DNA of 31,269 bases from the IMG/VR virus record IMGVR_UViG_2651869696_000013; one strand, given 5' to 3'. Of this stretch, positions 3,077 through 23,958 are shown one piece after another (within the stretch, counting starts at the first letter, position 1; every line of letters begins with the position of its first letter). The translations under genes were made by a program, and so were the position numbers. The stretch is from a virus (taxonomy: Duplodnaviria > Heunggongvirae > Uroviricota > Caudoviricetes). The notes under the pieces are model-generated. The model did not search any database and was not told the DNA's origin. It worked only from the letters and a program-made list of their open reading frames with translations.

Positions 3077-3363
3077 AAAATATATTGCTTAATAACTGGC
3101 TGAAGATTTCAGTCATGAAAAATGGTGATTTGTCGCTAGCTGATATTAAACGCGATAAAAACACTGGGGATATGGTGGAATCAACTATAGCCATTTATGC
3201 GGATAAATTAAATCTCCTGTCTGATGTGGTCAATTTACTTGTTAAACGCGCTGTATTTCATAAGCAAATTTCATCCGTGGATGAACTGACAAAATTAACG
3301 ACAGAAATCGCCAGCTATTGCGCTGATGAATTTAAGAAGCTGAACGACAAAAGGAGCTGGTAA
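3073..3363 (+). CDS. small early hypothetical protein
   Basis: 96-aa ORF coupled to neighbours on both sides. Confidence 0.55.
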   Translation: MKNILLNNWLKISVMKNGDLSLADIKRDKNTGDMVESTIAIYADKLNLLSDVVNLLVKRAVFHKQISSVDELTKLTTEIASYCADEFKKLNDKRSW

Positions 3364-3587
3364 TGCCGGACAACGTAGATTTTATTCAGGAACAACAGGC
3401 TGAATTACTGGAGCGCCAGATTAACGCGGCAAGGGTAAAACATTGCGGTGTTTCTGCGCTGGTTTGCGAAGAGTGTGATGCGCTAATACCTGCTGCCCGT
3501 CGTGCGGCTTATCCGTCAGCCACGCGTTGTGTTTCCTGTCAGTCAGTCTTTGAAGCAAAAAACAAACATTACCGGAGAATGGCATGA
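3363..3587 (+). CDS. DksA/TraR-family C4 zinc-finger protein
   Basis: CxxC ... CxxC pattern (CEECDAL ... CVSCQ) in a 74-aa protein; AGGAG RBS; TAATG overlap with the upstream gene. Confidence 0.65.
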   Translation: MPDNVDFIQEQQAELLERQINAARVKHCGVSALVCEECDALIPAARRAAYPSATRCVSCQSVFEAKNKHYRRMA

Positions 3588-3859
3588 GCATTCGTATTGA
3601 AATTGGCGAACGTTATGTGGTTACCAGTGACAGCTTCCAGTTTATTCTCCACGAGAAAAAGAGAGCGGAAAGCGGTAAAAACGCCGGTCAGGAGTGGCTG
3701 GCGGTGGTTGGTTATTACCCGAAATTAAGCCAGCTCGTTTCCGGCCTGATGCATCACGATATTCTGACCGGAAGCGCAAAATCTTTTGCCGATTTAAACG
3801 CGCAGGTTGAGCAACTCAGCAAGCGTTGCTCAGAGGCTTTTGGCTCACATGGCCGTTAA
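3584..3859 (+). CDS. small early hypothetical protein
   Basis: 91-aa ORF, GGAGAA RBS, overlaps the A start. Confidence 0.55.
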   Translation: MSIRIEIGERYVVTSDSFQFILHEKKRAESGKNAGQEWLAVVGYYPKLSQLVSGLMHHDILTGSAKSFADLNAQVEQLSKRCSEAFGSHGR

Positions 3860-6134
3860 AGCCTCCGGGCGTTTTGTCCCTCCGTCAGCATTTGCCGCAG
3901 GCACCGGTAAGGCGTTTACCGGTGCTTATGCATGGAACGCGCCACGCGAGGCCGTCGGGCGCGAAAGACCCCTTACACGTGACGAGATGCGTCAGGTGCA
4001 AGGTGTTTTATCCACGATTAACCGCCTGCCTTACTTTTTGCGCTCGCTGTTTACTTCACGCTATGACTACATCCGGCGCAATAAAAGCCCGGTGCACGGG
4101 TTTTATTTCCTCACATCCACTTTTCAGCGTCGTTTATGGCCGCGCATTGAGCGCGTGAATCAGCGCCATGAAATGAACACCGACGCGTCGTTGCTGTTTC
4201 TGGCAGAGCGCGACCAGTATGCGCGCCTGCCGGGGATGAATGACAAGGAGCTGAAAAAGTTTGCCGCCCGTATCTCATCACAGCTTTTCATGATGTATGA
4301 GGAACTCTGCGATGCCTGGGTGGATGCGCATGGCGAGAAAGAATCGCTGTTTACGGATGAGGCGCAGGCTCACCTCTATGGTCATGTTGCTGGCGCTGCA
4401 CGTGCTTTCAATATTTCCCCTCTCTACTGGAAAAAATACCGTAAAGGACAGATGACCACGAGGCAGGCATATTCTGCCATTGCCCGCCTGTTTAACGATG
4501 AGTGGTGGACTCATCAGCTTAAAGGCCAGCGTATGCGCTGGCATGAGGCGTTACTGATTGCTGTCGGGGAGGTCAATAAAGACCGTTCTCCTTATGCCAG
4601 TAAACATGCCATTCGTGATGTGCGTGCGCGCCGCCAGGCAAATCTGGAGTTTCTTAAATCGTGTGACCTTGAGAACAGGGAAACCGGCGAGCGCATCGAC
4701 CTTATCAGTAAGGTGATGGGCAGTATTTCTAATCCTGAAATTCGCCGGATGGAGCTGATGAACACCATTGCCGGTATTGAGCGTTACGCCGCTGCAGAGG
4801 GTGATGTGGGGATGTTTATCACGCTGACCGCGCCGTCAAAGTATCACCCGACACGTCAGGTCGGAAAAGGCGAAAGTAAAACCGTGCAGCTTAATCACGG
4901 CTGGAATGATGAGGCATTTAATCCAAAGGATGCGCAGCGTTATCTCTGCCGTATCTGGAGCCTGATGCGCACGGCATTCAAGGATAATGATTTACAGGTC
5001 TACGGTTTGCGTGTCGTCGAGCCACACCACGACGGAACTCCGCACTGGCATATGATGCTTTTTTGTAATCCACGCCAGCGTAACCAGATTATTGAAATCA
5101 TGCGTCGCTACGCGCTCAAAGAGGATGGAGACGAAAGAGGAGCCGCGCGAAACCGTTTTCAGGCAAAACACCTTAATCGGGGCGGTGCTGCGGGGTATAT
5201 CGCGAAATACATCTCAAAAAACATCGACGGCTATGCACTGGATGGTCAGCTCGATAACGATACTGGCAGGCCGCTGAAAGATACTGCTGCGGCTGTTACC
5301 GCATGGGCGTCAACGTGGCGCATTCCGCAATTTAAAACGGTTGGTCTGCCGACAATGGGGGCTTACCGTGAACTACGCAAATTGCCTCGCGGTGTCAGCA
5401 TTGCTGATGAGTTTGACGAGCGCGTCGAGGCTGCACGCGCCGCTGCAGACAGTGGTGATTTTGCGTTGTATATCAGCGCGCAGGGCGGGGCAAATGTCCC
5501 GCGCGATTGTCAGACTGTCAGGGTCGCCCGTAGCCCGTCGGATGACGTTAACGAGTACGAGGAAGAAGTCGAGAGAGTGGTCGGCATTTACGCGCCGCAT
5601 CTCGGCGCGCGTCATATTCATATCACCAGAACGACGGACTGGCGCATTGTGCCGAAAGTTCCGGTCGTTGAGCCTTTGACTTTAAAAAGCGGCATCGCCG
5701 CGCCTCGGAGTCCTGTCAATAACTGTGGAAAGCTCAACGGTGGTGATACTTCGTTACCGGCTCCCACACCTTCTGAGCACGCCGCAGCCGTGCTTAATCT
5801 GGTTGATGACGGTGTTATTGAATGGAATGAAACTGAGGTCGTGAGGGCGCTCAGGGGCGCATTAAAACACGACCTGCGAACGCCAAACCGTCAGCAAAGA
5901 AACGGAAGCCCGTTAAAACCGCATGAAATTGCACCATCTGCCAGACTGATCCGGTCGGAACGATTGCAAATCACCCGTATCCGCGTTGACCTTGCTCAGA
6001 ACGGTATCAGGCCGCAGCGATGGGAGCTTGAGGCGCTGGCGCGTGGCGCGACCGTAAATTATGACGGGAAAAAATTCACGTATCCGGTCGCTGATGAATG
6101 GCCGGGATTCTCAACAGTAATGGAGTGGACATGA
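3849..6134 (+). CDS. A: rolling-circle replication initiator endonuclease gpA
   Basis: 761-aa product from ATG 3849 (MAVKASGRF...); HUH-like PHWHMMLF and paired tyrosines in GYIAKYISKN typical of the P2 A nickase. Confidence 0.92.
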   Translation: MAVKASGRFVPPSAFAAGTGKAFTGAYAWNAPREAVGRERPLTRDEMRQVQGVLSTINRLPYFLRSLFTSRYDYIRRNKSPVHGFYFLTSTFQRRLWPRIERVNQRHEMNTDASLLFLAERDQYARLPGMNDKELKKFAARISSQLFMMYEELCDAWVDAHGEKESLFTDEAQAHLYGHVAGAARAFNISPLYWKKYRKGQMTTRQAYSAIARLFNDEWWTHQLKGQRMRWHEALLIAVGEVNKDRSPYASKHAIRDVRARRQANLEFLKSCDLENRETGERIDLISKVMGSISNPEIRRMELMNTIAGIERYAAAEGDVGMFITLTAPSKYHPTRQVGKGESKTVQLNHGWNDEAFNPKDAQRYLCRIWSLMRTAFKDNDLQVYGLRVVEPHHDGTPHWHMMLFCNPRQRNQIIEIMRRYALKEDGDERGAARNRFQAKHLNRGGAAGYIAKYISKNIDGYALDGQLDNDTGRPLKDTAAAVTAWASTWRIPQFKTVGLPTMGAYRELRKLPRGVSIADEFDERVEAARAAADSGDFALYISAQGGANVPRDCQTVRVARSPSDDVNEYEEEVERVVGIYAPHLGARHIHITRTTDWRIVPKVPVVEPLTLKSGIAAPRSPVNNCGKLNGGDTSLPAPTPSEHAAAVLNLVDDGVIEWNETEVVRALRGALKHDLRTPNRQQRNGSPLKPHEIAPSARLIRSERLQITRIRVDLAQNGIRPQRWELEALARGATVNYDGKKFTYPVADEWPGFSTVMEWT

Positions 6135-6586
6135 TGGCAAAAATTCACGAGGTAAAGCTGCACGCAAAATATTTCGACCTTGTGCTGGAAGGAAAGAAAC
6201 GCGCAGAGTTTCGGAAAAATGACCGTAATTATGAGCGCGGGGACACGTTGATTTTGCATGAATGGGTGCAGGGTGTGTATACGGGGCGAAAGGTTGAAGC
6301 CCGGATAACAGATGTTACTGACCTGTCAGACTGGCTGGAAGATTATGTCTTGCTAAGTATTGAGCTGCTTAATACAGGTGCATATGAGATTGTGAACTGG
6401 AAAGAACTTAGTGAGCGTGGTCTGGTATTCAGAATTAATCATGAAATTATGCATCAGCTCGGCCTTGCTGTTATGTATGAACCAGAGACGGGGATGTCTG
6501 GCGGGGCAATGGTTGCCACGGATGGAGCATGGAACTATTCAGATGAACAGATGGAGCGTGCACAGCAAAACGGGTGGCTTGGATAA
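6131..6586 (+). CDS. ASCH/DUF3850-like domain protein
   Basis: ATG overlaps the A stop; N-terminal EVKLHAKYFDLVLEGKKRAEFRKNDRNYERGDTLILHEW resembles the ASCH (PUA-like) fold signature; call is by recalled similarity. Confidence 0.6.
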   Translation: MMAKIHEVKLHAKYFDLVLEGKKRAEFRKNDRNYERGDTLILHEWVQGVYTGRKVEARITDVTDLSDWLEDYVLLSIELLNTGAYEIVNWKELSERGLVFRINHEIMHQLGLAVMYEPETGMSGGAMVATDGAWNYSDEQMERAQQNGWLG

Positions 6587-6792
6587 TGCACAGAATACCA
6601 GGCGAGATACCTCAGCATAAAACTAAAAATATCAAGCTGATGGCCATTGTTCACCGTCTGCAGCGGATTATGGTCAACGAAAATCTGACGCCAGATGAGC
6701 TAGTCGGGTGTGCCGAAATAGTCCGGGATAATTACGGGCGGTTTAACCATATCGGTCAATCAAGAGTTACGCCACCACCACGAAGACGATAG
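6586..6792 (+). CDS. small hypothetical protein
   Basis: 68-aa ORF; ATG overlaps the upstream stop (TAATG); no recognisable motif. Confidence 0.4.
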   Translation: MHRIPGEIPQHKTKNIKLMAIVHRLQRIMVNENLTPDELVGCAEIVRDNYGRFNHIGQSRVTPPPRRR

Positions 6793-6913
6793 AGAACGCC
6801 GCCAGTCGTGAAACTTGTTTTCAGGGCTGGCGGGGTTGAACAACTCGCGAAGCGAGGCGTTAGTTGACAGTCATATTTTTACTGCGTTGGTGCTGGTTTT
6901 TGACGGTTGAAAG

Positions 6914-6938
6914 GAGTTAGCTCGGAGAGCTAAAGCTA
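6914..6938. repeat. nested palindrome GTTAGCTC-GGA-GAGCTAA-AGCTAAC upstream of the cargo cassette
   Basis: Read directly: TTAGCTC / GAGCTAA inverted repeat with 3-nt spacer, plus a second AGCTAAC copy that could pair alternatively. Confidence 0.3.
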
Positions 6939-7021
6939 ACAACTTACAAATATTCAAAAGTAAGCTTCCTGTTGCTAACATAAGATCGATTTTTTATGTG
7001 GATGATGCAAAAAGGATAGCT

Positions 7022-7753
7022 ATGGATATTGTAATCGCTTTTCTATCACTCGCTTTTTTCGTTGCTTTTTTCATCGGGTTAATCAAGCCATCACTGGTGC
7101 GGATGCCAAACCGTAAACGTGCAAGTGCGGTTTATCTCGGAGGTGGTTTTGCATTGAGCATAATTGGTTCAATACTCTACCCAACAGAAAAAAGCCAGCC
7201 AGTTGCTAAAACTGAAACAGCAACCGTAGCAGAACATCAGGCTCAAAAAACATTCGAATATACTGAAAAAACACTCAAGGAATATCGGAACGAGCCAAAG
7301 AAGACTCGACACGATATTGTGAATAGTTACATTAACTTTAAGAAAGTGCCAGTCACCGCATCAGATGCATTTTATGCTTGCATGAGTGAGTATACATTTA
7401 CCAAAGATGATGAGTTGAAACTCGGTGATGTTCTTGGATGGTGCTTTAATGATTATGAAAATGACCCGAATTCACTAAACAATAAAATCAATCTTGATAC
7501 ATTTCAGAGCAATTTTAGTGGTTGGGATGGTTCTTATCGTCCATTGGAAAAACTAATTAAGGATAATATGAACGATGATTCATCTTATAAACATGTGTCA
7601 ACGGTATATCATTTGGTTTTGAATAAAGACCCGCACGCCATTGTGAAAACCACATTTCGTGGCACTAATGCTTATGGAGGAGTAGTTAAACAGACTATTG
7701 CTGCGCGTGTCGACATCCGAACGGGCGAAGTCGTTTCAGTATTAGATAACTAA
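7022..7753 (+). CDS. cargo membrane protein: two N-terminal TM helices plus ~170-aa soluble domain; function unknown
   Basis: ATG 7022 with AAGGA 6 nt upstream (track start 6998 is GTG); hydrophobic stretches IVIAFLSLAFFVAFFIGLI and AVYLGGGFALSIIGSILY; AT-rich. Confidence 0.7.
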   Translation: MDIVIAFLSLAFFVAFFIGLIKPSLVRMPNRKRASAVYLGGGFALSIIGSILYPTEKSQPVAKTETATVAEHQAQKTFEYTEKTLKEYRNEPKKTRHDIVNSYINFKKVPVTASDAFYACMSEYTFTKDDELKLGDVLGWCFNDYENDPNSLNNKINLDTFQSNFSGWDGSYRPLEKLIKDNMNDDSSYKHVSTVYHLVLNKDPHAIVKTTFRGTNAYGGVVKQTIAARVDIRTGEVVSVLDN

Positions 7754-7788
7754 TCGTTGATGCCGTATTGATACTTGTTATACTAGTG

Positions 7789-7818
7789 GTGGAACGAGAC
7801 TGCAATAGTCTGTTCCAC
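7789..7818 (+). other. stem-loop between the two cargo genes
   Basis: GTGGAACGAGACT-GCAAT-AGTCTGTTCCAC, about 12 bp stem with one bulge; no downstream U-tract, so not a classic intrinsic terminator. Confidence 0.3.
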
Positions 7819-7895
7819 AACAGGAGTAATTACCTTGACTGTAAGTTGCTTTTATTGAGGGAACTATGAAGTTTAAGACTGAATTGAGTTGAAAA

Positions 7896-9155
7896 TTGCA
7901 TGACTCGGTAGTGTTTGATTTGAAAAAAGACCTGGTAAAATTAGAGGGAAACCTAAAAAATACAGATTTGTTGTTGTCGTTTCAGTTCAAAATAATAAGG
8001 AATATAATTAGAAGTGAAAGGATGATCAAAGGATTAAAGTCTTTCTTAGGGGAACTAAAGGCAACAAAAAGAAAAGGTGGTTTAAAAAAAGAACAATCTA
8101 AACTTATTAAGGAAAATATTAAGAGTGTTGAGCAGGCTATTGATGATGTGAAATTTAAAATATATATCTTCAAAATGTTTGGTGATAGTGTTGCTTTTTT
8201 GTATTTGGATAAGTTTGATATTAAGCATTTTTTCTATAATGTTGTGGATTACAGTCCCAAGGAGTCAGCGGGCTATATGGGAGGGAAGGATGGCTTAAAA
8301 GAAGAATGGGAATTGGTGAAGAAGGCCTGCAAGGCTGGTGTTCCTACGTTACTCAATGATATTACAATGAGTATGAGGCATGGTGATGTTTGTTTACTTG
8401 GTGAAGGTGCACCAGTACTGGTGGAGGTGAAATCAAGTCAAAATAAAAATGATCGTGTTGAACGTCAAAAAAATAACCTTAATAGACTGGCTGGATTTTT
8501 AGCAGAAGATAAAGCTGAAGATTTTAGAGGGATGCCATTAGTGTTAAGGAAAGAACTGTGTTTTTCAGAAGTTACATATAAAAAAGAATTTAATGAGCAT
8601 CTGAATGTATGCAGGAAAAAAGGAATTTCATGGGTAAGGCTAGAAGATGGATTTTATGTGGTATCTAATCGTGGCTGTGATCTGGATATAGCATTATCAC
8701 AGTTGGATCTTAGAGGGAGGGAAATTGCACCTATATTTTTGAATGAATATAAAAATAATCAGTTGTGGGTTCCTTTAACTCCATTTGTTAATCTTATAAA
8801 TGATGCGCGTGATTTGTGTGACTTTATAAATGGGGAGTTAACTATTCTCTGTGTTCTTGATTTGGATTGTTTTAAACAAATAGCTTTGAATGAAGGGTTT
8901 GAGCTTGTTTTTGTCGATGGTGAAGACTATTCGATGATATTTAAAGAATTAGGTAGCTCATTGATTTGGGGTGTGTCATGGCAAATGATGCTTCGCACTC
9001 CTTTAGAAATGGTGTCAATGTCTTGGTTAATTAAAGATTCAATTGATAGATTTAAACGTTTACAAAAGCAACATGCTGAGATGCAGCCTGCCACTGATGT
9101 TAATACATCCGAAACCTCCTTGTTTGAAAAATATAGGCCTCTTTTTACAAAGTAG
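7896..9155 (+). CDS. cargo protein with PD-(D/E)xK-like nuclease signature; function unknown
   Basis: Long ORF in AT-rich DNA; track start is TTG 7896, first ATG is 8022, so start is uncertain; motif GDVCLLGEGAPVLVEVK (D164 ... E177-V-K179, nt 8385-8432); no Walker A motif seen. Confidence 0.7.
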   Translation: MHDSVVFDLKKDLVKLEGNLKNTDLLLSFQFKIIRNIIRSERMIKGLKSFLGELKATKRKGGLKKEQSKLIKENIKSVEQAIDDVKFKIYIFKMFGDSVAFLYLDKFDIKHFFYNVVDYSPKESAGYMGGKDGLKEEWELVKKACKAGVPTLLNDITMSMRHGDVCLLGEGAPVLVEVKSSQNKNDRVERQKNNLNRLAGFLAEDKAEDFRGMPLVLRKELCFSEVTYKKEFNEHLNVCRKKGISWVRLEDGFYVVSNRGCDLDIALSQLDLRGREIAPIFLNEYKNNQLWVPLTPFVNLINDARDLCDFINGELTILCVLDLDCFKQIALNEGFELVFVDGEDYSMIFKELGSSLIWGVSWQMMLRTPLEMVSMSWLIKDSIDRFKRLQKQHAEMQPATDVNTSETSLFEKYRPLFTK

Positions 9156-9292
9156 TCAGATGCTGTAGGTGTATATGCTATTGCATTAATTTGCATGCAA
9201 AACAAGTAGAGGTAAAAACTCTTACAGGCTGCTTGGGGGATAGCTTTTGAATGCTAATGCATTTGCATTCAAATTGCCCCATGAAGCGGGCG

Positions 9293-9311
9293 GGCGAGGC
9301 GGGGAAAGCAC
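9293..9311. other. cos site (P2-type 19-nt cohesive end GGCGAGGCGGGGAAAGCAC)
   Basis: Exact match to the P2 cohesive-end sequence as recalled; located between the cargo region and the Q 3' end, as in P2. Confidence 0.7.
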
Positions 9312-9453
9312 TGCGCGCTGGCGGTGGTGCTGATTTTATTTTTTCAGCGTCTGAGCGCGTCGTGAAGGCGCTTAGTCTGCCCGTTGAGGCGTTGGTGTGT
9401 CTGCGGGGTGTTTTGTGCGGTGGTGAGCGTGTGAGGGCGTGATGGCGGGTTGT

Positions 9454-9480: not shown

Positions 9481-10515
9481 TCAGCCGTTGTCAGTGTCCA
9501 GTGAGTAGTTTTTAAAGCGGATGACCTCCTGACCGAGCCAGCCGTTCATCTCGCGGATCCTGTCCTGTAACGGGATAAGCTCATTGCGGACAAAGACCTT
9601 TGCCACTTTCTCAATATCTCCCAGTGACCCGACGTTCTCCGGCTTGCCGCCCATCAACTGAAAGGGGATGCGGTGTGCGTCCAGCAGGTCAGCGGCGCTG
9701 GCTTTTTTGATATTAAAAAAATCGTCCTTCGTCGCCACTTCACTGAGCGGGATAATTTTAATGCCGTCGGCTTTCCCTTGCGGGGCATAGAGAAACAGAT
9801 TTTTAAAGTTGTTGCGGCCTTTCGACTTCACCATGTTTTCGCGGAGCATTTCGATATCGTTGCGATCCTGCACGGCATCGGTGACGTACATGATGTATCC
9901 GGCATGTGCGCCGTTTTCGTAATACTTGCGGCGGAACAGCGTGGCCGACTCATTCAGCCAGGCAGAGTTAAGGGCGCTGAGATATTCCGGCAGGCCGTAC
10001 AGCTCCTGATTAATATCCGGCTCCAGCAGGTGAAACACGGAGCCGGGCGCGAAAGGTGTCGGCTCATGGAAGGACGGCACCCACCAGTAAACATCCTCTT
10101 CCACGCCACGGCGGGTATATTTTGCCGGTGAGGTTTCCAGTCTGATGACCTTACCGGTGGTGCTGTAACGCTTTTCCAGAAACGCATTACCGAACACCAG
10201 AAAATCCAGCACAAAGCGGCTGAAATCCTGCTGGGAAAGCCACGGATGCGGGATAAATGTCGAGGCCAGAATATTACGTTTGACGTAAATCGGTGAGCTG
10301 TGATGCACGGCAGCACGCAGGCTTTTTGCCAGACCGGTAAAGCTGACCGGTGGCTCATACCATCTGCCGTTACTGATGCACTCGACGTAATCCAGAATGT
10401 CACGGCGGTCGAGTACCGGCACCGGCTCACCAAAGGTGAATGCCTCCATTTTCGGGGCGCTGGCGGTCATTTTTTTTGCCGCAGGTTGCGGTGTTTTCCC
10501 TTTTTTCTTGCTCAT
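9481..10515 (-). CDS. Q: portal protein gpQ
   Basis: 344-aa ORF, P2 Q-like sequence and length; start overlaps the P stop (ATGA). Confidence 0.93.
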   Translation of the reverse strand: MSKKKGKTPQPAAKKMTASAPKMEAFTFGEPVPVLDRRDILDYVECISNGRWYEPPVSFTGLAKSLRAAVHHSSPIYVKRNILASTFIPHPWLSQQDFSRFVLDFLVFGNAFLEKRYSTTGKVIRLETSPAKYTRRGVEEDVYWWVPSFHEPTPFAPGSVFHLLEPDINQELYGLPEYLSALNSAWLNESATLFRRKYYENGAHAGYIMYVTDAVQDRNDIEMLRENMVKSKGRNNFKNLFLYAPQGKADGIKIIPLSEVATKDDFFNIKKASAADLLDAHRIPFQLMGGKPENVGSLGDIEKVAKVFVRNELIPLQDRIREMNGWLGQEVIRFKNYSLDTDNG

Positions 10516-12287
10516 CAGTAAAACTCCAGAATGGTGGATGTCAGCGGAGTGCTGATACCGGCGGTGAGTGGCTCATTTAACAGGGCGTGCATGGTCGCCC
10601 AGGCGAGGTCGGCGTGGCTGGCTTCCTCGCTGCGGCTGGCCTCATAGGTGGCGCTGCGTCCGCTGCTGGTCATGGTCTTGCGGATAGCCATAAACGAGCT
10701 GGTGATGTCGGTGGCGCTGACGTCATATTCCAGACAGCCACGGCGGATAACGTCTTTTGCCTTGAGCACCATTGCGGTTTTCATTTCCGGCGTGTAGCGG
10801 ATATCGCGCGCGGCGGGATAGAACGAGCGCACGAGCTGGAACACACCGACACCGAGGCCGGTGGCATCAATCCCGATGTATTCGACGTTGTATTTTTCGG
10901 TGAGTTTGCGGATGGATTCTGCCTGGGTGGCAAAGTCCATGCCTTTCCACTGGTGACGCTCAAGGATCCTGAATTTGCCACCGGCCACCACCGGCGGTGC
11001 CAGCACCACGCATCCGGCGCTGTCGCCACGGTGTGACGGGTCGTAACCAATCCATACCGGGCGGGAGCCGAACGGATTTGCGGCAAACGGCGCATAGTCT
11101 TCCCATTCTTCCAGCGTGTCGACCATACAGCGTTGCAGCTCCTCGAACGGGAACACCGACGCCTTGTCGTCAACAAATTCACACATGAACAGGTTTTTAA
11201 AATCGTCGGCGCTGTTTTCGCGTTTGAGCTGCTCAATGTCGAACAGCGTGCAGCCGCCTTTCAGGGCGTCCTCAATGGTGACAATCTGCCGCCACTGGCC
11301 GTCCGCACAGAGAAGCCCACCGGCAAGGGCGTTATGACTGACGTCGATTTCCACGCGTTCGGCGGCGCTGGCGCGTCCCCGGTTGAACAGTTCACCCGAC
11401 CAGAACGGGTAGGCGTCGTGCGCCAGCGTGGACGGGGTGGAGAAATAGGTCGATCGCAGGTGACTCTGTGAGGCCATACCTGATGCCACCTTACGCAGCA
11501 CCTGAAAATTCGGGATCCAGAAAATCTCGTCGACGTACAGGTCGCCGTTATGGCTCTGCGCGGTGTTGGAGTTGGTGCCGAGAAAAATCAGTTTTGCGCC
11601 GTTATTGCCCAGGACAATCGGGTCACCGGTCAGGTCAACGTCAACCAGACGGGCAAAGGCGATGATGTATTCACGGAACACATACGCCTGCGTTTTACTG
11701 GCCGACAGAAAAATCTGGTTATGACCGGTTTTCAGGGCGCGCAGCAGCGCCTCGCGGGAAAAATAAAACGTCGCGCCAATCTGGCGGGATTTCAGGATAT
11801 CGCGGATGCGGTGCTCAAGCCCGGCGCGATACCAGTGCAACTGATAATCGAAAGACTGCTCAAAGAAAATCTGCTCCAGCTTTTCGATGGCCTCGTCACT
11901 GAAAAAATTCTTTTTCGGTTTGCGCCGCCCGCCTTTGTTGCGGTTAGCGACGTTCGGATTAAGGTCTGCCTCGTTGCCGGTCTGGCTGTAGCGGTTTACC
12001 CGTGCCAGTCGTTCAATCTGGCGTCCCAGCAGGTCAATTTCCTTGAAATCACCGCCGGTTTTCTGCGGTTTGATGATGAGCTGGGTCAGCCGCGCTTCCA
12101 GACTCATTTCGACACGGCTGATGGGGGCAACGCTGTCCCAGCTGTCGCGCTGTTTCCAGCTCTGCACCGTCGGGCGTTTCATCTGCAACATGGCGGCAAT
12201 CTGCGGCACGGAAAATCCCTGCCAGTACAGCAGCGCCGCCTGACGACGCGGGTCGTGTAAAAGAGTGGTGTCTGTGGTGATGGTCAT
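10515..12287 (-). CDS. P: terminase large (ATPase) subunit gpP
   Basis: Start trimmed to ATG at 12287 (MTITTDTTLLHDPRRQ...), giving 590 aa as in P2 P. Confidence 0.93.
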   Translation of the reverse strand: MTITTDTTLLHDPRRQAALLYWQGFSVPQIAAMLQMKRPTVQSWKQRDSWDSVAPISRVEMSLEARLTQLIIKPQKTGGDFKEIDLLGRQIERLARVNRYSQTGNEADLNPNVANRNKGGRRKPKKNFFSDEAIEKLEQIFFEQSFDYQLHWYRAGLEHRIRDILKSRQIGATFYFSREALLRALKTGHNQIFLSASKTQAYVFREYIIAFARLVDVDLTGDPIVLGNNGAKLIFLGTNSNTAQSHNGDLYVDEIFWIPNFQVLRKVASGMASQSHLRSTYFSTPSTLAHDAYPFWSGELFNRGRASAAERVEIDVSHNALAGGLLCADGQWRQIVTIEDALKGGCTLFDIEQLKRENSADDFKNLFMCEFVDDKASVFPFEELQRCMVDTLEEWEDYAPFAANPFGSRPVWIGYDPSHRGDSAGCVVLAPPVVAGGKFRILERHQWKGMDFATQAESIRKLTEKYNVEYIGIDATGLGVGVFQLVRSFYPAARDIRYTPEMKTAMVLKAKDVIRRGCLEYDVSATDITSSFMAIRKTMTSSGRSATYEASRSEEASHADLAWATMHALLNEPLTAGISTPLTSTILEFY

Positions 12288-12460
12288 GAATACCTCGCCG
12301 TGATGAATACACGGCAAGGCTACTGAGTCGCGCCCCGCGATTCGCTAAGGTGCTGTTGTGTCAGTGATAAGCCATCCGGGACTGATGGCGGAGGATGCGC
12401 ATCGTCGGGAAACTGATGCCGACATGTGACTCCTCTAATCACTATTCAGGACTCCTGACA

Positions 12461-13315
12461 ATGGCAAAAAAAGTCTCAAAATTCTTTCGTATCGGCGTTG
12501 AGGGTGACACCTGTGACGGGCGTGTCATCAGTGCGCAGGATATTCAGGAAATGGCCGAAACCTTTGACCCGCGTGTCTATGGTTGCCGCATTAACCTGGA
12601 ACATCTGCGCGGCATCCTGCCTGACGGTATTTTTAAGCGTTATGGCGATGTGGCTGAACTGAAGGCCGAAAAGATTGACGATGATTCAGCGCTGAAAGGC
12701 AAATGGGCGCTGTTTGCGAAAATCACCCCGACCGATGACCTTATCGCGATGAACAAGGCCGCGCAGAAGGTCTATACCTCAATGGAAATTCAGCCGAACT
12801 TTGCCAATACCGGCAAATGTTATCTGGTGGGGCTGGCCGTCACCGATGACCCGGCAAGCCTCGGCACGGAATACCTGGAATTCTGCCGCACGGCAAAACA
12901 CAACCCCCTGAACCGCTTCAAATTAAGCCCTGAAAACCTGATTTCAGTGGCAACGCCTGTTGAGCTGGAATTTGAAGACCTGCCTGAAACCGTGTTCACC
13001 GCCCTGACCGAAAAGGTGAAATCCATTTTTGGCCGCAAACAGGCCAGCGATGACGCCCGTCTGAATGACGTGCATGAAGCGGTGACCGCTGTTGCTGAAC
13101 ATGTGCAGGAAAAACTGAGCGCCACTGAGCAGCGCCTCGCAGAGATGGAAACCGCCTTTTCTGCACTTAAGCAGGATGTGACTGACAGGGCTGATGAAAC
13201 CAGCCAGGCATTCACCCGCCTGAAAAACAGTCTCGACCACACCGAAAGTCTGACCCAGCAGCGCCGCAGCAAGGCCACCGGCGGTGGCGGTGACGCCCTG
13301 ATGACGAACTGCTGA
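12461..13315 (+). CDS. O: capsid scaffolding protein gpO
   Basis: Start at ATG 12461 (MAKKVSKFFRIGVEG...), 284 aa as in P2 O; divergent from P. Confidence 0.9.
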   Translation: MAKKVSKFFRIGVEGDTCDGRVISAQDIQEMAETFDPRVYGCRINLEHLRGILPDGIFKRYGDVAELKAEKIDDDSALKGKWALFAKITPTDDLIAMNKAAQKVYTSMEIQPNFANTGKCYLVGLAVTDDPASLGTEYLEFCRTAKHNPLNRFKLSPENLISVATPVELEFEDLPETVFTALTEKVKSIFGRKQASDDARLNDVHEAVTAVAEHVQEKLSATEQRLAEMETAFSALKQDVTDRADETSQAFTRLKNSLDHTESLTQQRRSKATGGGGDALMTNC

Positions 13316-13373
13316 CCGGCGTCAGTCAGTCCGGGAAAACCTTCACGATTAACCCTTAATTTCAGGAAAAACT

Positions 13374-14447
13374 ATGCGCCAGGAAACCCGCTTTAAATTT
13401 AATGCCTACCTGTCCCGTGTTGCCGAACTGAACGGCATCGACGCCGGTGATGTGTCGAAAAAATTCACCGTTGAACCGTCGGTCACCCAGACCCTGATGA
13501 ACACCATGCAGGAGTCCTCTGATTTTCTGACCCGCATCAACATTGTGCCGGTCAGCGAAATGAAAGGGGAAAAAATTGGTATCGGTGTCACCGGCTCCAT
13601 CGCCAGCACCACCGACACCGCCGGTGGCACCGAGCGTCAGCCGAAGGACTTCTCGAAGCTGGCGTCTAACAAGTACGAATGCGACCAGATTAACTTCGAT
13701 TTTTATATCCGCTACAAAACGCTGGACCTGTGGGCGCGTTATCAGGATTTCCAGCTCCGTATCCGTAACGCCATTATCAAACGCCAGTCCCTTGATTTCA
13801 TCATGGCCGGTTTTAACGGCGTGAGGCGTGCCGAAACCTCTGACCGCAGCAGCAATCCGATGCTGCAGGATGTGGCGGTCGGCTGGCTGCAGAAATACCG
13901 CAATGAAGCCCCGGCGCGCGTGATGAGCAAGGTCACTGACGAGGAAGGTCACACCACCTCTGAGGTTATCCGCGTGGGCAAGGGCGGTGATTATGCCAGC
14001 CTTGATGCACTGGTGATGGATGCGACCAACAACCTGATTGAACCGTGGTATCAGGAAGACCCTGACCTTGTGGTGATTGTGGGGCGTCAGCTACTGGCGG
14101 ACAAGTATTTCCCCATCGTCAACAAGGAGCAGGACAACAGCGAAATGCTGGCCGCTGACGTCATCATCAGCCAGAAACGCATCGGTAACCTGCCGGCGGT
14201 ACGCGTCCCGTACTTTCCGGCGGATGCGATGCTCATCACGAAGCTGGAAAACCTGTCCATCTACTACATGGATGACAGCCATCGCCGCGTGATTGAGGAA
14301 AACCCGAAACTCGACCGCGTGGAGAACTACGAGTCAATGAACATTGATTACGTGGTGGAAGACTATGCCGCCGGTTGTCTGGTGGAAAAAATTAAGGTCG
14401 GTGACTTCTCCACACCGGCTAAAGCGACCGCAGAGCCGGGAGCGTAA
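13374..14447 (+). CDS. N: major capsid protein gpN
   Basis: 357 aa, P2 N-like; RBS CAGGAAA before ATG. Confidence 0.93.
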   Translation: MRQETRFKFNAYLSRVAELNGIDAGDVSKKFTVEPSVTQTLMNTMQESSDFLTRINIVPVSEMKGEKIGIGVTGSIASTTDTAGGTERQPKDFSKLASNKYECDQINFDFYIRYKTLDLWARYQDFQLRIRNAIIKRQSLDFIMAGFNGVRRAETSDRSSNPMLQDVAVGWLQKYRNEAPARVMSKVTDEEGHTTSEVIRVGKGGDYASLDALVMDATNNLIEPWYQEDPDLVVIVGRQLLADKYFPIVNKEQDNSEMLAADVIISQKRIGNLPAVRVPYFPADAMLITKLENLSIYYMDDSHRRVIEENPKLDRVENYESMNIDYVVEDYAAGCLVEKIKVGDFSTPAKATAEPGA

Positions 14448-14450
14448 CCG

Positions 14451-15194
14451 ATGACGAGTCCCGCACAGCGCCACATGATGCGGGTCTCGGCAGCGATGAC
14501 CGCGCAGCGGGAAGCCGCCCCGCTGCGACATGCAACTGTCTATGAGCAGATGCTGGTTAAGCTCGCCGCAGACCAGCGCACACTGAAAGCGATTTATTCA
14601 AAAGAGCTGAAGGCCGCGAAAAAACGCGAACTGCTGCCGTTCTGGTTGCCGTGGGTGAACGGCGTGCTGGAGCAGGGCAAAGGCGCACAGGATGACATTC
14701 TGATGACGGTCATGCTGTGGCGTCTGGATACCGGCGATATTGCCGGTGCGCTGGAGATTGCCCGTTATGCCCTGAAGTACGGTCTGACCATGCCGGGTAA
14801 ACACCGCCGCACCCCGCCGTACATGTTCACCGAGGAGGTGGCGCTCGCGGCCATGCGCGCCCACTCTGCCGGTGAGTCTGTGGATACCCGCCTGCTGACG
14901 GAGACCCTTGAACTGACCGCCACGGCTGACATGCCTGATGAAGTGCGCGCAAAGCTGCACAAAATCACCGGTCTGTTTCTGCGTGACGCTGGTGATGCCG
15001 CCGGTGCGCTGGCGCACCTGCAACGTGCGACACAGCTCGACTGTCAGGCAGGCGTCAAAAAAGAGATTGAACGACTGGAGCGGGAGCTGAAACCGAAGCC
15101 GGAGCCGCAGCCCAAAGCGGCCACCCGCACTCCGCGTAAGACCCGGAGCGTGACACCGGCAAAACGTGGACGCCCGAAAAAGAAAGCCAGTTAA
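14451..15194 (+). CDS. M: terminase small/endonuclease subunit gpM
   Basis: 247 aa, P2 M-like; basic C-terminal tail. Confidence 0.9.
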   Translation: MTSPAQRHMMRVSAAMTAQREAAPLRHATVYEQMLVKLAADQRTLKAIYSKELKAAKKRELLPFWLPWVNGVLEQGKGAQDDILMTVMLWRLDTGDIAGALEIARYALKYGLTMPGKHRRTPPYMFTEEVALAAMRAHSAGESVDTRLLTETLELTATADMPDEVRAKLHKITGLFLRDAGDAAGALAHLQRATQLDCQAGVKKEIERLERELKPKPEPQPKAATRTPRKTRSVTPAKRGRPKKKAS

Positions 15195-15293
15195 CAACCG
15201 AATGCGCCCCGCGCCAGGGCGGCACGCCGGTCAGTGAGGGTGAATCACCTGACACTGCACCGGCGTCCACCGCCCGACTTTTCAGAGGTAGTC

Positions 15294-15803
15294 ATGATGA
15301 CGCTGATTATTCCGCGAAAGGAGGCTCCCGTGTCCGGTGAGGGTACGGTGGTCATCCCGCAACCGGCAGGCGACGAGCCGGTGATTAAAAACACGTTCTT
15401 TTTTCCCGATATCGACCCGAAGCGCGTCCGGGAACGTATGCGCCTTGAGCAGACCGTCGCCCCCGCCCGTCTGCGTGAGGCTATCAAGTCAGGCATGGCG
15501 GAGACGAATGCGGAGCTGTACGAGTACCGCGAACAGAAAATTGCCGCCGGTTTTACGCGTCTGGCGGACGTTCCGGCGGACGACATCGACGGTGAAAGCA
15601 TCAAAGTTTTTTACTACGAGCGCGCCGTGTGTGCGATGGCGACCGCGTCGCTTTATGAGCGTTATCGCGGCGTGGATGCCAGTGCGAAAGGCGACAAGAA
15701 GGCCGACAGCATTGACAGCACCATTGATGAACTGTGGCGGGATATGCGCTGGGCGGTGGCGCGTATCCAGGACAAGCCGCGCTGCATCGTGAGTCAAATC
15801 TGA
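15294..15803 (+). CDS. L: head completion/stabilisation protein gpL
   Basis: Start trimmed to ATG 15294 (MMTLIIPRKEAP...), 169 aa as in P2 L. Confidence 0.88.
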   Translation: MMTLIIPRKEAPVSGEGTVVIPQPAGDEPVIKNTFFFPDIDPKRVRERMRLEQTVAPARLREAIKSGMAETNAELYEYREQKIAAGFTRLADVPADDIDGESIKVFYYERAVCAMATASLYERYRGVDASAKGDKKADSIDSTIDELWRDMRWAVARIQDKPRCIVSQI

Positions 15804-16006
15804 TGAAGACCTTTGCGCTACAGGGCGAAACGCTCGACGCCATCTGTGTCCGGTATTACGGGCGCACTGAGGGCGTGGTCGAGGCCGTGCTCGCCGCAAA
15901 TCCGGGACTGGCTGAACTGGGTGCGGTGCTGCCGCACGGCACCGCCGTCGAACTGCCCGACGTTCAGACCGCGCCCGTGGCTGAAACTGTCAATCTGTGG
16001 GAGTAA
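15803..16006 (+). CDS. X: tail protein gpX
   Basis: 67 aa (MKTFALQGETLDAICVRYYGRTEG...), matches P2 X; ATG overlaps the L stop. Confidence 0.85.
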   Translation: MKTFALQGETLDAICVRYYGRTEGVVEAVLAANPGLAELGAVLPHGTAVELPDVQTAPVAETVNLWE

Positions 16007-16009
16007 CGC

Positions 16010-16291
16010 ATGACAGCAGAAGAAAAAAGCGTCCTGTCGCTTTTCATGATTGGGGTGCTGATTGTTGTCGGCAAGGTGCTTGCCGGTGGTGAACCCATCA
16101 CCCCGCGTCTGTTTATCGGGCGCATGTTGCTCGGTGGTTTTGTCTCGATGGTTGCCGGTGTTGTTCTGGTGCAGTTTCCTGACCTGTCACTGCCTGCGGT
16201 GTGCGGTATCGGCTCCATGCTGGGTATCGCCGGTTATCAGGTGATTGAGATTGCCATTCAGCGCCGTTTTAAGGGCAGGGGGAAACCGTAA
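16010..16291 (+). CDS. Y: holin gpY
   Basis: 93 aa with hydrophobic helices; first gene of the lysis cassette. Confidence 0.85.
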   Translation: MTAEEKSVLSLFMIGVLIVVGKVLAGGEPITPRLFIGRMLLGGFVSMVAGVVLVQFPDLSLPAVCGIGSMLGIAGYQVIEIAIQRRFKGRGKP

Positions 16292-16788
16292 TGCCGGTAA
16301 TTAACACGCATCAGAATATCGCGGCCTTTCTCGACATGCTGGCCGTGTCCGAAGGGACGGCGAATCATCCGCTGACGAAAAACCGGGGCTATGACGTGAT
16401 AGTCACCGGACTGGACGGGAAGCCGGAAATTTTCACTGACTACAGTGACCACCCGTTCGCGCATGGCCGACCGGCGAAGGTGTTTAACCGTCGCGGTGAA
16501 AAATCCACGGCCTCCGGTCGCTATCAGCAGCTTTACCTGTTCTGGCCGCACTACCGCAAACAGCTTGCCCTGCCGGATTTCAGTCCGTTGTCACAGGACA
16601 GGCTCGCCATTCAGTTGATCCGCGAACGCGGTGCACTGGATGACATCCGGGCGGGACGCATTGAGCGCGCCATTTCACGCTGTCGCAATATCTGGGCGTC
16701 CCTGCCGGGTGCCGGTTACGGTCAGCGTGAGCATTCACTGGAAAAACTGGTCACCGTCTGGCGTACCGCTGGCGGCGTACCGGCTTAA
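16291..16788 (+). CDS. K: endolysin gpK
   Basis: 165 aa, P2 K-like; follows the holin. Confidence 0.88.
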   Translation: MPVINTHQNIAAFLDMLAVSEGTANHPLTKNRGYDVIVTGLDGKPEIFTDYSDHPFAHGRPAKVFNRRGEKSTASGRYQQLYLFWPHYRKQLALPDFSPLSQDRLAIQLIRERGALDDIRAGRIERAISRCRNIWASLPGAGYGQREHSLEKLVTVWRTAGGVPA

Positions 16789-16802
16789 ACGGAGTAAACA
16801 CC

Positions 16803-17228
16803 ATGAAGAAATTATCCCTTTCACTGATGCTGAACGTGTCGCTGGCGCTGATGCCGGCACTGTCCCTAATTTACCCGCAGAGCGTGGCCGTCAATTTTGT
16901 CGCTGCCTGGGCGATTCTGGCGACGGTTATCTGTGTGGTTGCCGGTGGTGTCGGCGTGTATGCCACTGAGTATGTGCTGGAACGCTACGGGCGGGAGCTG
17001 CCGCCGGAATCGCTGGCCGTGAAGATTGTCACGTCGCTGTTTTTGCAGCCGGTGCCGTGGCGCAGACGGGCAGTAGCTCTGGTGGTGATGGTGGCGACGT
17101 TTATCTCGCTGGTCGCTGCCGGGTGGATTTTTACCGCACTGATTTATCTCGTGGCGTCGCTGTTTTTCCGGCTGATACGTACGGCCTGTCGTCAGCGTCT
17201 TGAGGGGCGGGAACCATGTCAAAGCTGA
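16803..17228 (+). CDS. lysA: lysis regulator LysA (membrane protein)
   Basis: 141 aa, multiple hydrophobic segments; position as P2 lysA. Confidence 0.8.
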   Translation: MKKLSLSLMLNVSLALMPALSLIYPQSVAVNFVAAWAILATVICVVAGGVGVYATEYVLERYGRELPPESLAVKIVTSLFLQPVPWRRRAVALVVMVATFISLVAAGWIFTALIYLVASLFFRLIRTACRQRLEGREPCQS

Positions 17229-17641
17229 TGATTGTGCTGGTCGTATTGTTATCACTGGCGGTGGCGGGGCTGTTTCTGGCGAAGCATGAAAACGCCAGCC
17301 TGCGCGCCTCGCTGGACAGGGCGAACAACGTCGCCAGCGGGCAGCAGACGACCATCACCATGCTGAAAAATCAGCTTCATGTTGCCCTCACCAGGGCAGA
17401 CAAAAACGAGCTGGCGCAGGTGGCACTGCGTCAGGAACTGGAGAACGCCGCGAAGCGTGAAGCACAGCGCGAGAAAACCATCACGAGGTTACTGAATGAA
17501 AACGAAGATTTTCGCCGCTGGTACGGTGCTGACCTGCCTGATGCTGTGCGCCGGTTGCACCAGCGTCCGGCCTGCACCGACGCCAGTGATTGTCGCCAAC
17601 GCCTGCCCGAAAGTGAGTCTTTGCCCGATGCCGGGCAGTGA
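17216..17641 (+). CDS. lysB: LysB, Rz-like inner-membrane spanin
   Basis: 141 aa, N-terminal TM then coiled-coil-like region; position as P2 lysB. Confidence 0.8.
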   Translation: MSKLMIVLVVLLSLAVAGLFLAKHENASLRASLDRANNVASGQQTTITMLKNQLHVALTRADKNELAQVALRQELENAAKREAQREKTITRLLNENEDFRRWYGADLPDAVRRLHQRPACTDASDCRQRLPESESLPDAGQ

Positions 17642-17786
17642 CCCGCAGACGAACGGCGATTTAAGTGCTGATATCAGGCAGCTTGAGAACGCGCTGGCAC
17701 GCTGTGCCAGCCAGGTAAAAATGATTAAACACTGTCAGGACGAAAACGATGCTCAAACCCGACAGCCTGCGCAGGGCACTGACTGA
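17496..17786 (+). CDS. lysC: LysC, Rz1-like outer-membrane lipoprotein spanin
   Basis: Embedded out of frame in the lysB 3' half; lipobox LCAGC after a signal peptide; 96 aa as in P2. Confidence 0.8.
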   Translation: MKTKIFAAGTVLTCLMLCAGCTSVRPAPTPVIVANACPKVSLCPMPGSDPQTNGDLSADIRQLENALARCASQVKMIKHCQDENDAQTRQPAQGTD

Positions 17787-18216
17787 TGCCGTCACGGTGC
17801 TGAAAACCAGCCCCGAGATGCTGCGGATATTCGTGGATAACGGGAGTATTGCCTCCACACTGGCTGCGTCGCTGTCATTCGAAAAGCGTTACACGCTCAA
17901 TGTCATTGTGACCGACTTTACCGGTGATTTTGACCTGCTCATCGTGCCGGTGCTGGCGTGGCTGCGGGAAAATCAGCCCGACATCATGACCACCGATGAA
18001 GGCCAGAAAAAGGGCTTCACGTTTTATGCAGACATCAACAATGACAGCAGCTTTGATATCAGTATCAGCCTGATGCTGACCGAGCGCACGCTGGTCAGTG
18101 AGGTGGACGGCGCGCTGCATGTGAAGAATATCCCGGAACCTCCGCCGCCGGAGCCGGTCACCCGCCCGATGGAGCTGTATATCAATGGCGAACTCGTGAG
18201 TAAGTGGGATGAATGA
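17749..18216 (+). CDS. R: tail completion protein gpR
   Basis: 155 aa, P2 R-like. Confidence 0.88.
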   Translation: MLKPDSLRRALTDAVTVLKTSPEMLRIFVDNGSIASTLAASLSFEKRYTLNVIVTDFTGDFDLLIVPVLAWLRENQPDIMTTDEGQKKGFTFYADINNDSSFDISISLMLTERTLVSEVDGALHVKNIPEPPPPEPVTRPMELYINGELVSKWDE

Positions 18217-18661
18217 GTTTAAGCGTTTTGAAGACCGGCTGACCGGACTGATTGAGTCGCTGTCACCGTCAGGGCGTCGGCGACTGAGTGCCGAACTGGC
18301 GAAACGTCTGCGGCAGAGTCAGCAGCGTCGGGTGATGGCACAGAAAGCCCCGGACGGCACACCCTACGCGCCACGCCAGCAGCAGAGCGCCAGAAAAAAG
18401 ACCGGTCGTGTTAAGCGAAAAATGTTTGCGAAACTTATCACCAGTCGTTTTTTGCATATCCGCGCCAGCCCGGAGCAGGCATCAATGGAATTTTACGGCG
18501 GGAAGTCGCCGAAAATCGCCAGTGTGCATCAGTTTGGTCTGTCGGAAGAAAACCGGAAAGACGGTAAGAAAATTGATTATCCGGCGCGTCCTCTGCTCGG
18601 CTTTACCGGTGAGGATGTGCAGATGATTGAAGAGATTATCCTGGCTCACCTCGACCGTTAG
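18209..18661 (+). CDS. S: tail completion protein gpS
   Basis: 150 aa, P2 S-like. Confidence 0.88.
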   Translation: MNEFKRFEDRLTGLIESLSPSGRRRLSAELAKRLRQSQQRRVMAQKAPDGTPYAPRQQQSARKKTGRVKRKMFAKLITSRFLHIRASPEQASMEFYGGKSPKIASVHQFGLSEENRKDGKKIDYPARPLLGFTGEDVQMIEEIILAHLDR

Positions 18662-18727
18662 TTGTGCCATTCCCGACACCTCATCGTCACATTGCCGCCG
18701 GTATGACCCGGCGGCATCCTTCCCGTT

Positions 18728-19363
18728 ATGAACACTCTCGCAAATATCCAGGAACTCGCGCGCGCACTGCGCAACATGATTCGCACCGGCCTTGTCGTCG
18801 AAACCGACCTTAACGCCGGTCGCTGCCGTGTGCAGACCGGCGGCATGTGCACCGACTGGCTTCAGTGGCTGACCTGTCGTGCCGGGCGTTCGCGCATATG
18901 GTGGGCACCTTCCGTGGGGGAGCAGGTGCTGATTCTGGCCGTGGGCGGTGAACTTGACACGGCGTTTGTTCTGCCGGGGATTTATTCCGGCGATAACCCC
19001 GCGCCGTCTGCGTCGGCGGATGCCCTGCATATCCGTTTCCCTGACGGGGCGGTGATTGAGTATGAACCTGAAACCAGTGCACTGACGGTAAGCGGAATTA
19101 AAACGGCCAGCGTGACGGCTTCTGATTCTGTTACTGCCACGGTGCCGGTGGTCATGGTGAAAGCATCAACCCGCGTCACCCTGGACACACCGGAGGTGGT
19201 CTGCACCAACAGGCTGATTACCGGCACGCTGGAAGTGCAGAAGGGCGGGACGATGCGCGGCAACATTGAACACACCGGCGGTGAACTCTCATCAAACGGG
19301 AAGGTACTGCATACCCATAAACACCCCGGCGACAGCGGCGGCACAACCGGGGGACCTCTATGA
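18728..19363 (+). CDS. V: baseplate spike/assembly protein gpV
   Basis: 211 aa, P2 V-like. Confidence 0.9.
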   Translation: MNTLANIQELARALRNMIRTGLVVETDLNAGRCRVQTGGMCTDWLQWLTCRAGRSRIWWAPSVGEQVLILAVGGELDTAFVLPGIYSGDNPAPSASADALHIRFPDGAVIEYEPETSALTVSGIKTASVTASDSVTATVPVVMVKASTRVTLDTPEVVCTNRLITGTLEVQKGGTMRGNIEHTGGELSSNGKVLHTHKHPGDSGGTTGGPL

Positions 19364-19707: not shown

Positions 19708-19711
19708 AACC

Positions 19712-23946: not shown

Positions 23947-23958
23947 CGTTTATGAAAA
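23933..23958 (-). repeat. right recombination (hix/gix-like) site of the invertible segment
   Basis: Reverse complement reads TTTTCATAAACG-TT-GGTTTGGGAGAA; same right half-site as the left site. Confidence 0.6.

Follow-up and report, generated by a model that had tools for sequence, protein, structure and literature searches.

The DNA analysed here, called the window throughout, is a stretch of 31,269 nt (IMG/VR virus record IMGVR_UViG_2651869696_000013) that comprises a complete P2-like prophage, in which the slot between the replication gene A and the cohesive-end site (cos) is occupied by AT-rich cargo. Two open reading frames (ORFs) on the same strand occupy this insert with 112 nt between them, gene 1 (7022–7753, + strand, 243 amino acids (aa)) and gene 2 (native 429-codon frame at 7866–9155, + strand). 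A sequence-only reading had described positions 6793–9292 as one cargo cassette and as a candidate anti-phage defence module of two genes. The insert is two independent single-gene cargo modules lying side by side, not one system. The reading that we favour, with a probability of about 0.55, is that of two independent modules in which gene 2 is a stand-alone, nuclease-based anti-phage candidate, attenuated or dead in this genome.

Location, composition and borders of the insert

The insert sits between the A operon and cos (9293–9311) or the portal gene, and is therefore the equivalent of the tin/old slot of P2, as had been proposed. Gene A (3807–6134) with two small coupled ORFs behind it is located on the left. 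On the right is the string GGCGAGGCGGGGAAAGCAC at 9293–9311, read straight from the sequence, which we take to be the P2-type cos from established knowledge of P2. The terminase and portal genes are encoded on the minus strand from 9481 onward (portal gene, 9481–10515). The same string is present in the cloned P4 hotspot fragments listed in Table S2A of Rousset et al. 2022 (PMC9122126), and the A-to-cos slot was described as a hotspot of anti-phage cargo in that study. Old and tin are phage-exclusion genes, and the slot is hence called a defence hotspot. The window genes occupy the same slot between A and cos as old and tin of P2 but show no homology to them: P2 and Wphi match the window only over an approximately 70-bp element at 6793–6865 (the anchor element, see below), and the Old models of PADLOC give no match.

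The G+C content in four consecutive 500-nt intervals of 7001–9000 was 0.39, 0.37, 0.34 and 0.35, and was mostly 0.53–0.62 in the structural core (9501–21000). The foreign composition noted earlier is thus borne out, with 34–39% over 7000–9000 versus approximately 53–60% in the core. The borders of the modules were located by pairwise blastn. A block that includes the region upstream of gene 1 (6866–7021) was 94–95% identical to P24A7b, P22H4 and DG341-1 up to 7753–7764, where homology breaks at the stop codon of gene 1; this break is the left border of the gene 2 module. From 9243–9257 onward, the window is again homologous to the backbone of other P2-like and 186-like prophages, and the right border of the gene 2 module carries a palindrome with perfect spacing at 9246–9273 (arms 9246–9259 and 9260–9273, 93% complementary, no strand assigned). 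Module 1 accordingly extends over approximately 6866–7753, and module 2 from 7754 to approximately 9245.

The right flank at 9264–9341 also matches positions 5711–5789 of locus L009, the stretch between psu and a gene 2 homologue in a P4-like satellite. The cargo slot therefore abuts cos in both elements. In Serratia-type P4-like satellites, the slot between psu and int holds, besides the gene 2 homologue, a gene on the opposite strand for a 457-aa protein (7397–8770 in locus L015 and 3162–4535 in locus L016), in which no Pfam domain was found and which represents a further uncharacterised gene of the hotspot.

Products and alleles of the two genes

RefSeq annotation of an E. coli locus with 99.9% identity gives gene 1 the same coordinates. 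The AlphaFold2 model of its product contains two N-terminal hydrophobic helices (residues 2–21 and 31–52) with the basic loop RMPNRKR between them, and behind the helices a disordered linker and a well-modelled domain from approximately residue 80. Together with the label '2 TM' given to this protein type by Rousset et al., these features uphold the earlier description of a protein with two transmembrane (TM) segments. Cys120 and Cys141 are invariant in the family. The product is probably composed of a two-helix membrane hairpin, a helical domain of putative HdeA/B-like type located in the periplasm, and a small domain of beta-sheet; the periplasmic acid-stress chaperones HdeA and HdeB are the nearest known comparison for the helical domain. 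The C-terminal domains most likely face the periplasm, given the positive-inside loop RMPNRKR, the two invariant cysteines and the putative HdeA/B-like fold. Gene 1 belongs to phrog_3403, a PHROG of unknown function, and no match was obtained in Pfam, PADLOC or NCBIfam scans. The family comprised 204 clusters, nearly all of approximately 243 aa, and every match with an organism name was from Enterobacterales. A profile search for distant relatives enlarged the same family and returned nothing beyond it, with all named matches again from Enterobacterales. Among the P2/186-like prophages of Enterobacterales, gene 1 is regarded as an accessory gene that is semi-conserved and marks the left edge of the truly variable slot. 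In E. coli LR-45 (NZ_AP027532.1, 2749971–2753241), only window positions 7283–9292 are matched, in two pieces, and an IS3-family element is annotated under the match; the insertion sequence therefore disrupts the gene 1 part, and gene 2 is kept.

Gene 2 belongs to phrog_14906, likewise a PHROG of unknown function. A full hidden Markov model search returned 1380 clusters (50% identity) at E ≤ 1e-3 and 468 at E ≤ 1e-30, and a word-indexed search 22 clusters only. Among the 150 family matches listed, most were approximately 350–460 aa long and aligned end to end. Members were from Proteobacteria, Acidobacteria, Chloroflexi, Bacteroidetes, Planctomycetes, Spirochaetes and Actinobacteria. Residues G106, D107, K120, G136, K141, G143, E147, D165, R171, D174, E187, K189, R197 and Q201 were invariant in 22 close and 49 diverse members. 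They include the putative catalytic motif D-x12-E-x-K, encoded on the + strand by the codons for D174 (8385–8387), E187 (8424–8426) and K189 (8430–8432). The PD-(D/E)xK-like motif pointed out earlier as D164/E177/K179 is therefore real, and corresponds to D174/E187/K189 in the numbering of the full-length protein.

The AlphaFold2 model of gene 2 (predicted local distance difference test (pLDDT) 88.5, predicted template modelling score 0.89) consists of three long N-terminal helices forming a coiled coil (residues 13–113), a core, and an additional C-terminal alpha/beta domain extending to approximately residue 406. The core has the order helix 142–156, strand 161–163, strand 175–177, strand 184–186, helix 196–214 and strand 216–220, that is, alpha-beta-beta-beta-alpha-beta. 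D174 is placed just before strand 175–177 and E187-V-K189 just behind strand 184–186, while the invariant E147 is in the first core helix and R197 and Q201 are in the second. In this predicted structure, the core fits PD-(D/E)xK nucleases in motif placement and topology, with the invariant signature E147...D174-x12-E187-x-K189...Q201. As D174 stands at the start of strand 2 and E187-x-K189 at the end of strand 3, the designation of gene 2 as a PD-(D/E)xK-type nuclease is well motivated, with the activity predicted from the model. The A-G-x-x-G-G-K loop at residues 135–141 was considered as a Walker A motif and rejected, since K is not followed by S/T and the model shows coil over this segment.

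Gene 2 gave no match in Pfam, NCBIfam or PADLOC. The 49 diverse relatives showed no domain in the Pfam scan and two chance-level matches only in the PADLOC scan. The sequence-profile search against PDB, with the whole family as well as with the isolated core, generated coiled-coil or chance matches only, and no significant structural counterpart in PDB was found for the N-terminal three-helix bundle or for the C-terminal domain. Neither a signal sequence nor a TM segment was detected in gene 2. The only repeated matches of the isolated core were to Hjc (PF01870), in 5 of 26 members, and to PDDEXK_9 (PF08011), in 2 of 26. Their alignment begins at the D174 strand, but all of them were under the Pfam cut-offs (best E 0.04, 14 bits versus a cut-off of 21), and Hjc, at approximately 130 aa, is without the flanking domains of gene 2.

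The gene had been read as 7896–9155 from a TTG codon, and this start had to be revised. In the near-identical loci TUM14771, MB06102 and 09-02E, a 429-aa coding sequence (CDS) begins at the ATG corresponding to window position 7866, with GAGGGA before it; the CDS is at 4018–5307 in locus L001 and at the same relative coordinates in loci L005 and L006. Intact alleles include WP_085004853 of TUM14771 and WP_001704922 of 09-02E. The window differed from TUM14771 at two of 2500 positions, C7890T and A8494G, and the same two substitutions set it apart from L001, L005 and L006. C7890T converts codon 9 of gene 2 (7890–7892, + strand) from CGA (Arg9), present in the relatives, to TGA. The TTG at 7896 is the first start codon past this stop, one codon (3 nt) behind it, and the 419-aa ORF 7896–9155 (+ strand) in the program-made ORF list is what remains of the frame. 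Selenocysteine insertion or readthrough at TGA 7890 was considered and rejected, as the relatives simply encode Arg at this codon.

A8494G (+ strand) results in E210G. The family varies at residue 210, with Gly in the Citrobacter homologue, so that E210G is probably neutral and the nonsense codon is the sole obviously damaging change. Over 7850–7930, the window was matched by none of the 17 complete E. coli genomes that carry gene 2. In a collection of 15 billion proteins, the window-type allele was found on just 2–3 contigs versus hundreds for the intact alleles; the exact 419-aa residual product was present on one contig and a 377-aa call on two. The residual product could be made only by re-initiation at TTG 7896, before which no Shine-Dalgarno sequence is evident. 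Given the stop at codon 9, gene 2 probably has reduced activity or none in this genome.

Independence of the two genes and their possible roles

Of 5426 complete E. coli genomes, 261 contained gene 1 and 17 the whole 2500-nt region. Approximately 240 E. coli genomes match only up to the end of gene 1, as do the phages S164, P24A7b, P22H4, in which gene 1 is called Orf97, and 9W. In P24A7b, P22H4 and DG341-1, gene 1 is followed by an unrelated gene of 232, 89 or 224 aa; the gene behind it is of DUF2971 type in Klebsiella and encodes 322 aa in Serratia; in Photorhabdus, gene 1 is alone beside ogr. Gene 2 homologues were likewise encountered separately. In a Citrobacter P2-like prophage, the homologue is the sole call in the interval from A to the portal gene, without gene 1, and is placed directly 3′ of the hairpin anchor with its own AT-rich upstream region. 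In P4-like satellites of E. coli and of Serratia-type hosts, psu is immediately followed by a homologue with 49–52% identity to gene 2 (P0005 and P0006); in the P0006 loci, an integrase is located beyond the homologue. The Pluralibacter homologue (P0004) is between psu and int remnants. The homologue of Vibrio cholerae is beside a serine recombinase and that of Ramlibacter beside a gene with helix-turn-helix (HTH) and Peptidase_M78 domains, both without gene 1. Across 78 loci from many phyla, the gene 2 family was the sole large ORF cluster, and the immediate neighbours fell almost all in different clusters. Gene 2 thus accompanies gene 1 in 17 of the 261 genomes with gene 1 and has relatives without it, and the earlier proposal of a two-gene module, for which separate occurrence of the genes had been named as one refutation, is not supported.

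Both genes are already catalogued as separate single-gene hotspot systems. In Rousset et al. 2022 (PMC9122126, Tables S1 and S5), the gene 1 type is P2 system no. 12, single-gene, labelled '2 TM', with 210 occurrences, and gene 2 in its full-length form (MKFKTELSRK...) is P2 system no. 138, single-gene, with 16 occurrences. The P4 relative of gene 2 is P4 system no. 32, with 48 occurrences, and Table S5A contains the arrangement 'DUF3850/ASCH + hypothetical + hypothetical' (WP_001704921 + WP_000355825 + WP_001704922). These entries are the same proteins, catalogued without domain or function, from which the window allele differs by R9* and E210G; neither protein sequence is in the table of evaluated systems of that study. 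Nor do the cloned-system datasets of Moura de Sousa et al. 2026 contain gene 2, which is not Crouga, Bandua, Aernus, Toga, Reve or Hailong, and neither gene is among the systems cloned there. Neither gene was found in the DefensePredictor supplements (PMC13092281) by the sequence fragments and accessions tried, the accession and PHROG identifiers matched no paper text, and 'orf97' was not found either. Neither protein matched any family of PADLOC-DB v2.0.0, which includes Old, Shedu, PARIS, Rst and PD-T4/T7/Lambda models, at E ≤ 1. The earlier statement that no named defence system can be assigned is consistent with these results, the PADLOC, Pfam, NCBIfam and PDB searches having been without a match for either protein.

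Gene 2 is a credible anti-phage candidate because its relatives occupy the psu-int hotspot of P4 and other mobile-element edges. The family is present in the cos-proximal hotspots of both P2 and P4. In P4 hotspots, six of eight randomly chosen unknown loci were phage-protective (2026 study, PMC13586616). Neighbours of distant gene 2 relatives included Shedu, Old/Gabija/PARIS-type ATPases, Lamassu LmuB, MADS components, integrases and a resolvase. PD-(D/E)XK is the commonest domain among the newly validated DefensePredictor systems, 13–14 of which have such a core amid diverse outer domains (PMC13092281). Gene 2 resembles these systems and Shedu SduA in having a PD-(D/E)xK-type core amid lineage-specific domains and in its location on mobile elements, but it has no sequence match to SduA or to any PADLOC model. 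The gene 2 product would be a single-protein anti-phage nuclease, in which the flanking domains might restrain the nuclease or sense infection and the core would then cut DNA, either that of the invader or the cell's own (abortive infection). The window allele would at best yield little protein, lacking the first 10 residues, via re-initiation at TTG 7896. It is conceivable, at somewhat less than even chances, that gene 2 defines a family of single-protein anti-phage nucleases that is widespread and as yet without a name, in which the N-terminal coiled coil and the C-terminal domain provide a new gating of the PD-(D/E)xK core, and which is among the few cargo families common to the P2 and P4 hotspots.

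Several points weigh against the reading of gene 2 as a stand-alone anti-phage gene. Many neighbours of the distant relatives are housekeeping genes, and the defence neighbours were listed without a background comparison. PADLOC detects nothing, even in the 49 diverse relatives. The hotspots also hold partition systems, toxins and other cargo not concerned with defence (Rousset et al. 2022, PMC9122126). In the E. coli P2-like prophages that carry gene 2, it is behind gene 1 in 17 of 17, so that a local functional link is possible. Applied only to gene 2, and not to the pair as a module, the designation as an uncharacterised anti-phage candidate holds with roughly even odds; both genes had been catalogued before. 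Gene 1 probably acts at the envelope, independently of gene 2, as a superinfection exclusion or lysogenic-conversion factor.

The two genes could also form one defence system through cooperation of the 2-TM protein with the nuclease-like protein, for example as a membrane effector and a sensor or nuclease. They share a strand and an AT-rich composition and are separated by 112 nt, gene 2 follows gene 1 in all 17 complete E. coli genomes that carry it, and the pair is adjacent in Salmonella too (locus tags EVU49_07340 and EVU49_07345). We nevertheless regard such a system as very improbable, since gene 1 has other partners or none in approximately 94% of its E. coli occurrences and in other genera, and gene 1 is missing beside the gene 2 relatives of the Citrobacter P2-like prophage, the P4-like satellites, Vibrio, Ramlibacter and the 78 diverse loci. 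The recombination break at the gene 1 stop codon and the AT-rich upstream region that the Citrobacter homologue has of its own point in the same direction, and gene 1 probably has its folded part in the periplasm while gene 2 is without a signal sequence or TM segment. Gene 1 might instead be a constant component that pairs with whichever gene is downstream, as a different single gene on the same strand is present behind it in many P2/186-like prophages (the 224-, 232- and 89-aa genes, the DUF2971 gene, the 322-aa gene and gene 2). This is improbable as well: gene 1 is alone in Photorhabdus, the hairpin anchor separates it from the next gene in DG341-1 and Klebsiella, gene 2, the sole downstream gene that was traced, is widespread without it, and Rousset et al. 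curated it as a single-gene system.

For gene 2 itself, two further explanations were weighed against that of an anti-phage nuclease attenuated or dead in this genome. Gene 2 could be a mobile-element gene of nuclease type with no immune role, such as a selfish homing-type endonuclease that invades cos-proximal slots, an addiction toxin with an unrecognised small antitoxin or RNA, or a recombination, repair or anti-defence factor. Its patchy stand-alone distribution, its own promoter region and its position at the edges of different mobile elements would suit this, as would the sub-threshold similarity to the Holliday-junction resolvase family, the hairpin upstream of gene 2 and the known non-defence cargo of the hotspots; the premature stop in the window copy would fit relief from toxicity. 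However, an architecture of approximately 400 aa with large non-catalytic domains kept across phyla is atypical of small homing nucleases and resolvases, no conserved small ORF is adjacent to gene 2, the family is present in P2 and P4 hotspots, where most tested unknowns protect, and defence genes are among the neighbours, so that a non-immune role is considered unlikely. In this genome, moreover, the gene 2 module may simply be a dead pseudogene and gene 1 the only active gene. The TGA at codon 9 is private to the window allele, the allele is on 2–3 contigs against hundreds with intact ones, and the sole in-frame restart is a TTG without an evident Shine-Dalgarno sequence. On the other hand, the other 419 codons are intact save E210G at a variable position, so that the lesion is recent, and TTG 7896 is 3 nt past the stop, where termination-reinitiation is possible. 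The lost residues precede helix 1, which starts at residue 13 of the full-length model, residues 1–5 have pLDDT < 50, and many family members begin near that alignment position. Complete inactivity is accordingly a serious possibility that falls a little short of even odds.

If full-length gene 2 protects, it would represent a broad single-gene immune family missed by PADLOC and Pfam-based tools, with a new regulatory architecture around a common nuclease core. The presence of the family in P2 and P4 hotspots at approximately 50% identity bears on a cargo pool shared by helper phages and satellites. A fragment 6793–9292 cloned from this genome would carry an allele stopped at codon 9 and an unrelated gene, and its inactivity could mislead.

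Hairpins and other features of the locus

The earlier claim of palindromes upstream and of an intergenic stem-loop was confirmed in part. Inverted repeats are present at 6795–6837, 6907–6949, 7786–7821 and 9246–9273, but the intergenic region, taken over its full 117 nt, is unremarkable in folding (z = −1.2). The first of the repeats belongs to a strong GC-rich hairpin element at 6795–6863 (+ strand), at the end of the A operon block, which forms the left anchor of the hotspot. The element has 19-nt arms (6795–6813 and 6819–6837) and folds as RNA with −37.3 kcal/mol (z = −4.8), and none of 200 shuffled sequences was as stable. The anchor hairpin is kept in P2, Wphi and Yersinia P2-like phages, and the approximately 70-bp element recurs at cassette junctions of other loci (L004, 5972–6019; L018, 5747–5815; L014, 5818–5893). 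E. coli DG341-1 carries a second, diverged copy behind gene 1 with compensatory changes in the stem. In a Klebsiella 186-like prophage, the element is behind gene 1, and in Citrobacter it is directly before the gene 2 homologue. The conserved 70-bp hairpin might serve as a terminator, or as a recombination anchor by which modules are swapped.

The region upstream of gene 1 (6866–7021, + strand) contains short palindromes (inverted repeats 6907–6949, 6942–6961 and 6955–6974). A consensus scan placed a promoter-like site for gene 2, TTGATG-16 nt-TG-TATACT with an extended −10 TG and 9 of 12 matches, at 7757–7784 (+ strand), a short way into the gene 2 module (left border 7754–7765). The count of promoter-like sites in the region was not above chance, so this site is a lead only. 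The hairpin between the two genes (7786–7821, + strand; arms 7786–7795 and 7812–7821) folds locally into a strong structure of 7 + 6 pairs with one bulge, without a T-run behind it, and may be a 5′ untranslated region structure or an operator.

Between gene A and the insert are a DUF3850/ASCH gene (6098–6586), the product of which also contains DUF7415, and a small ORF of 72 aa (6574–6792). The genes of 6098–6792 belong to the conserved backbone of this P2 lineage, with 94–95% identity in P24A7b, P22H4 and DG341-1, and the ASCH gene was counted as hotspot content in the table of Rousset et al. (PMC9122126). A 63-aa ORF at 9251–9442 spans cos. It is annotated as hypothetical in MB06102 and carries no annotation in two other near-identical loci, and is probably a spurious call. 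Farther into the prophage, between the fibre gene and the tail sheath region, is an invertible tail-fibre segment (22421–24607, G+C 0.46–0.49). Within it are two genes for tail-fibre assembly that face opposite ways, a minus-strand sequence for an alternative fibre C-terminus with a Collar domain, and a serine invertase gene (Resolvase and HTH_7 domains) at 23969–24607.

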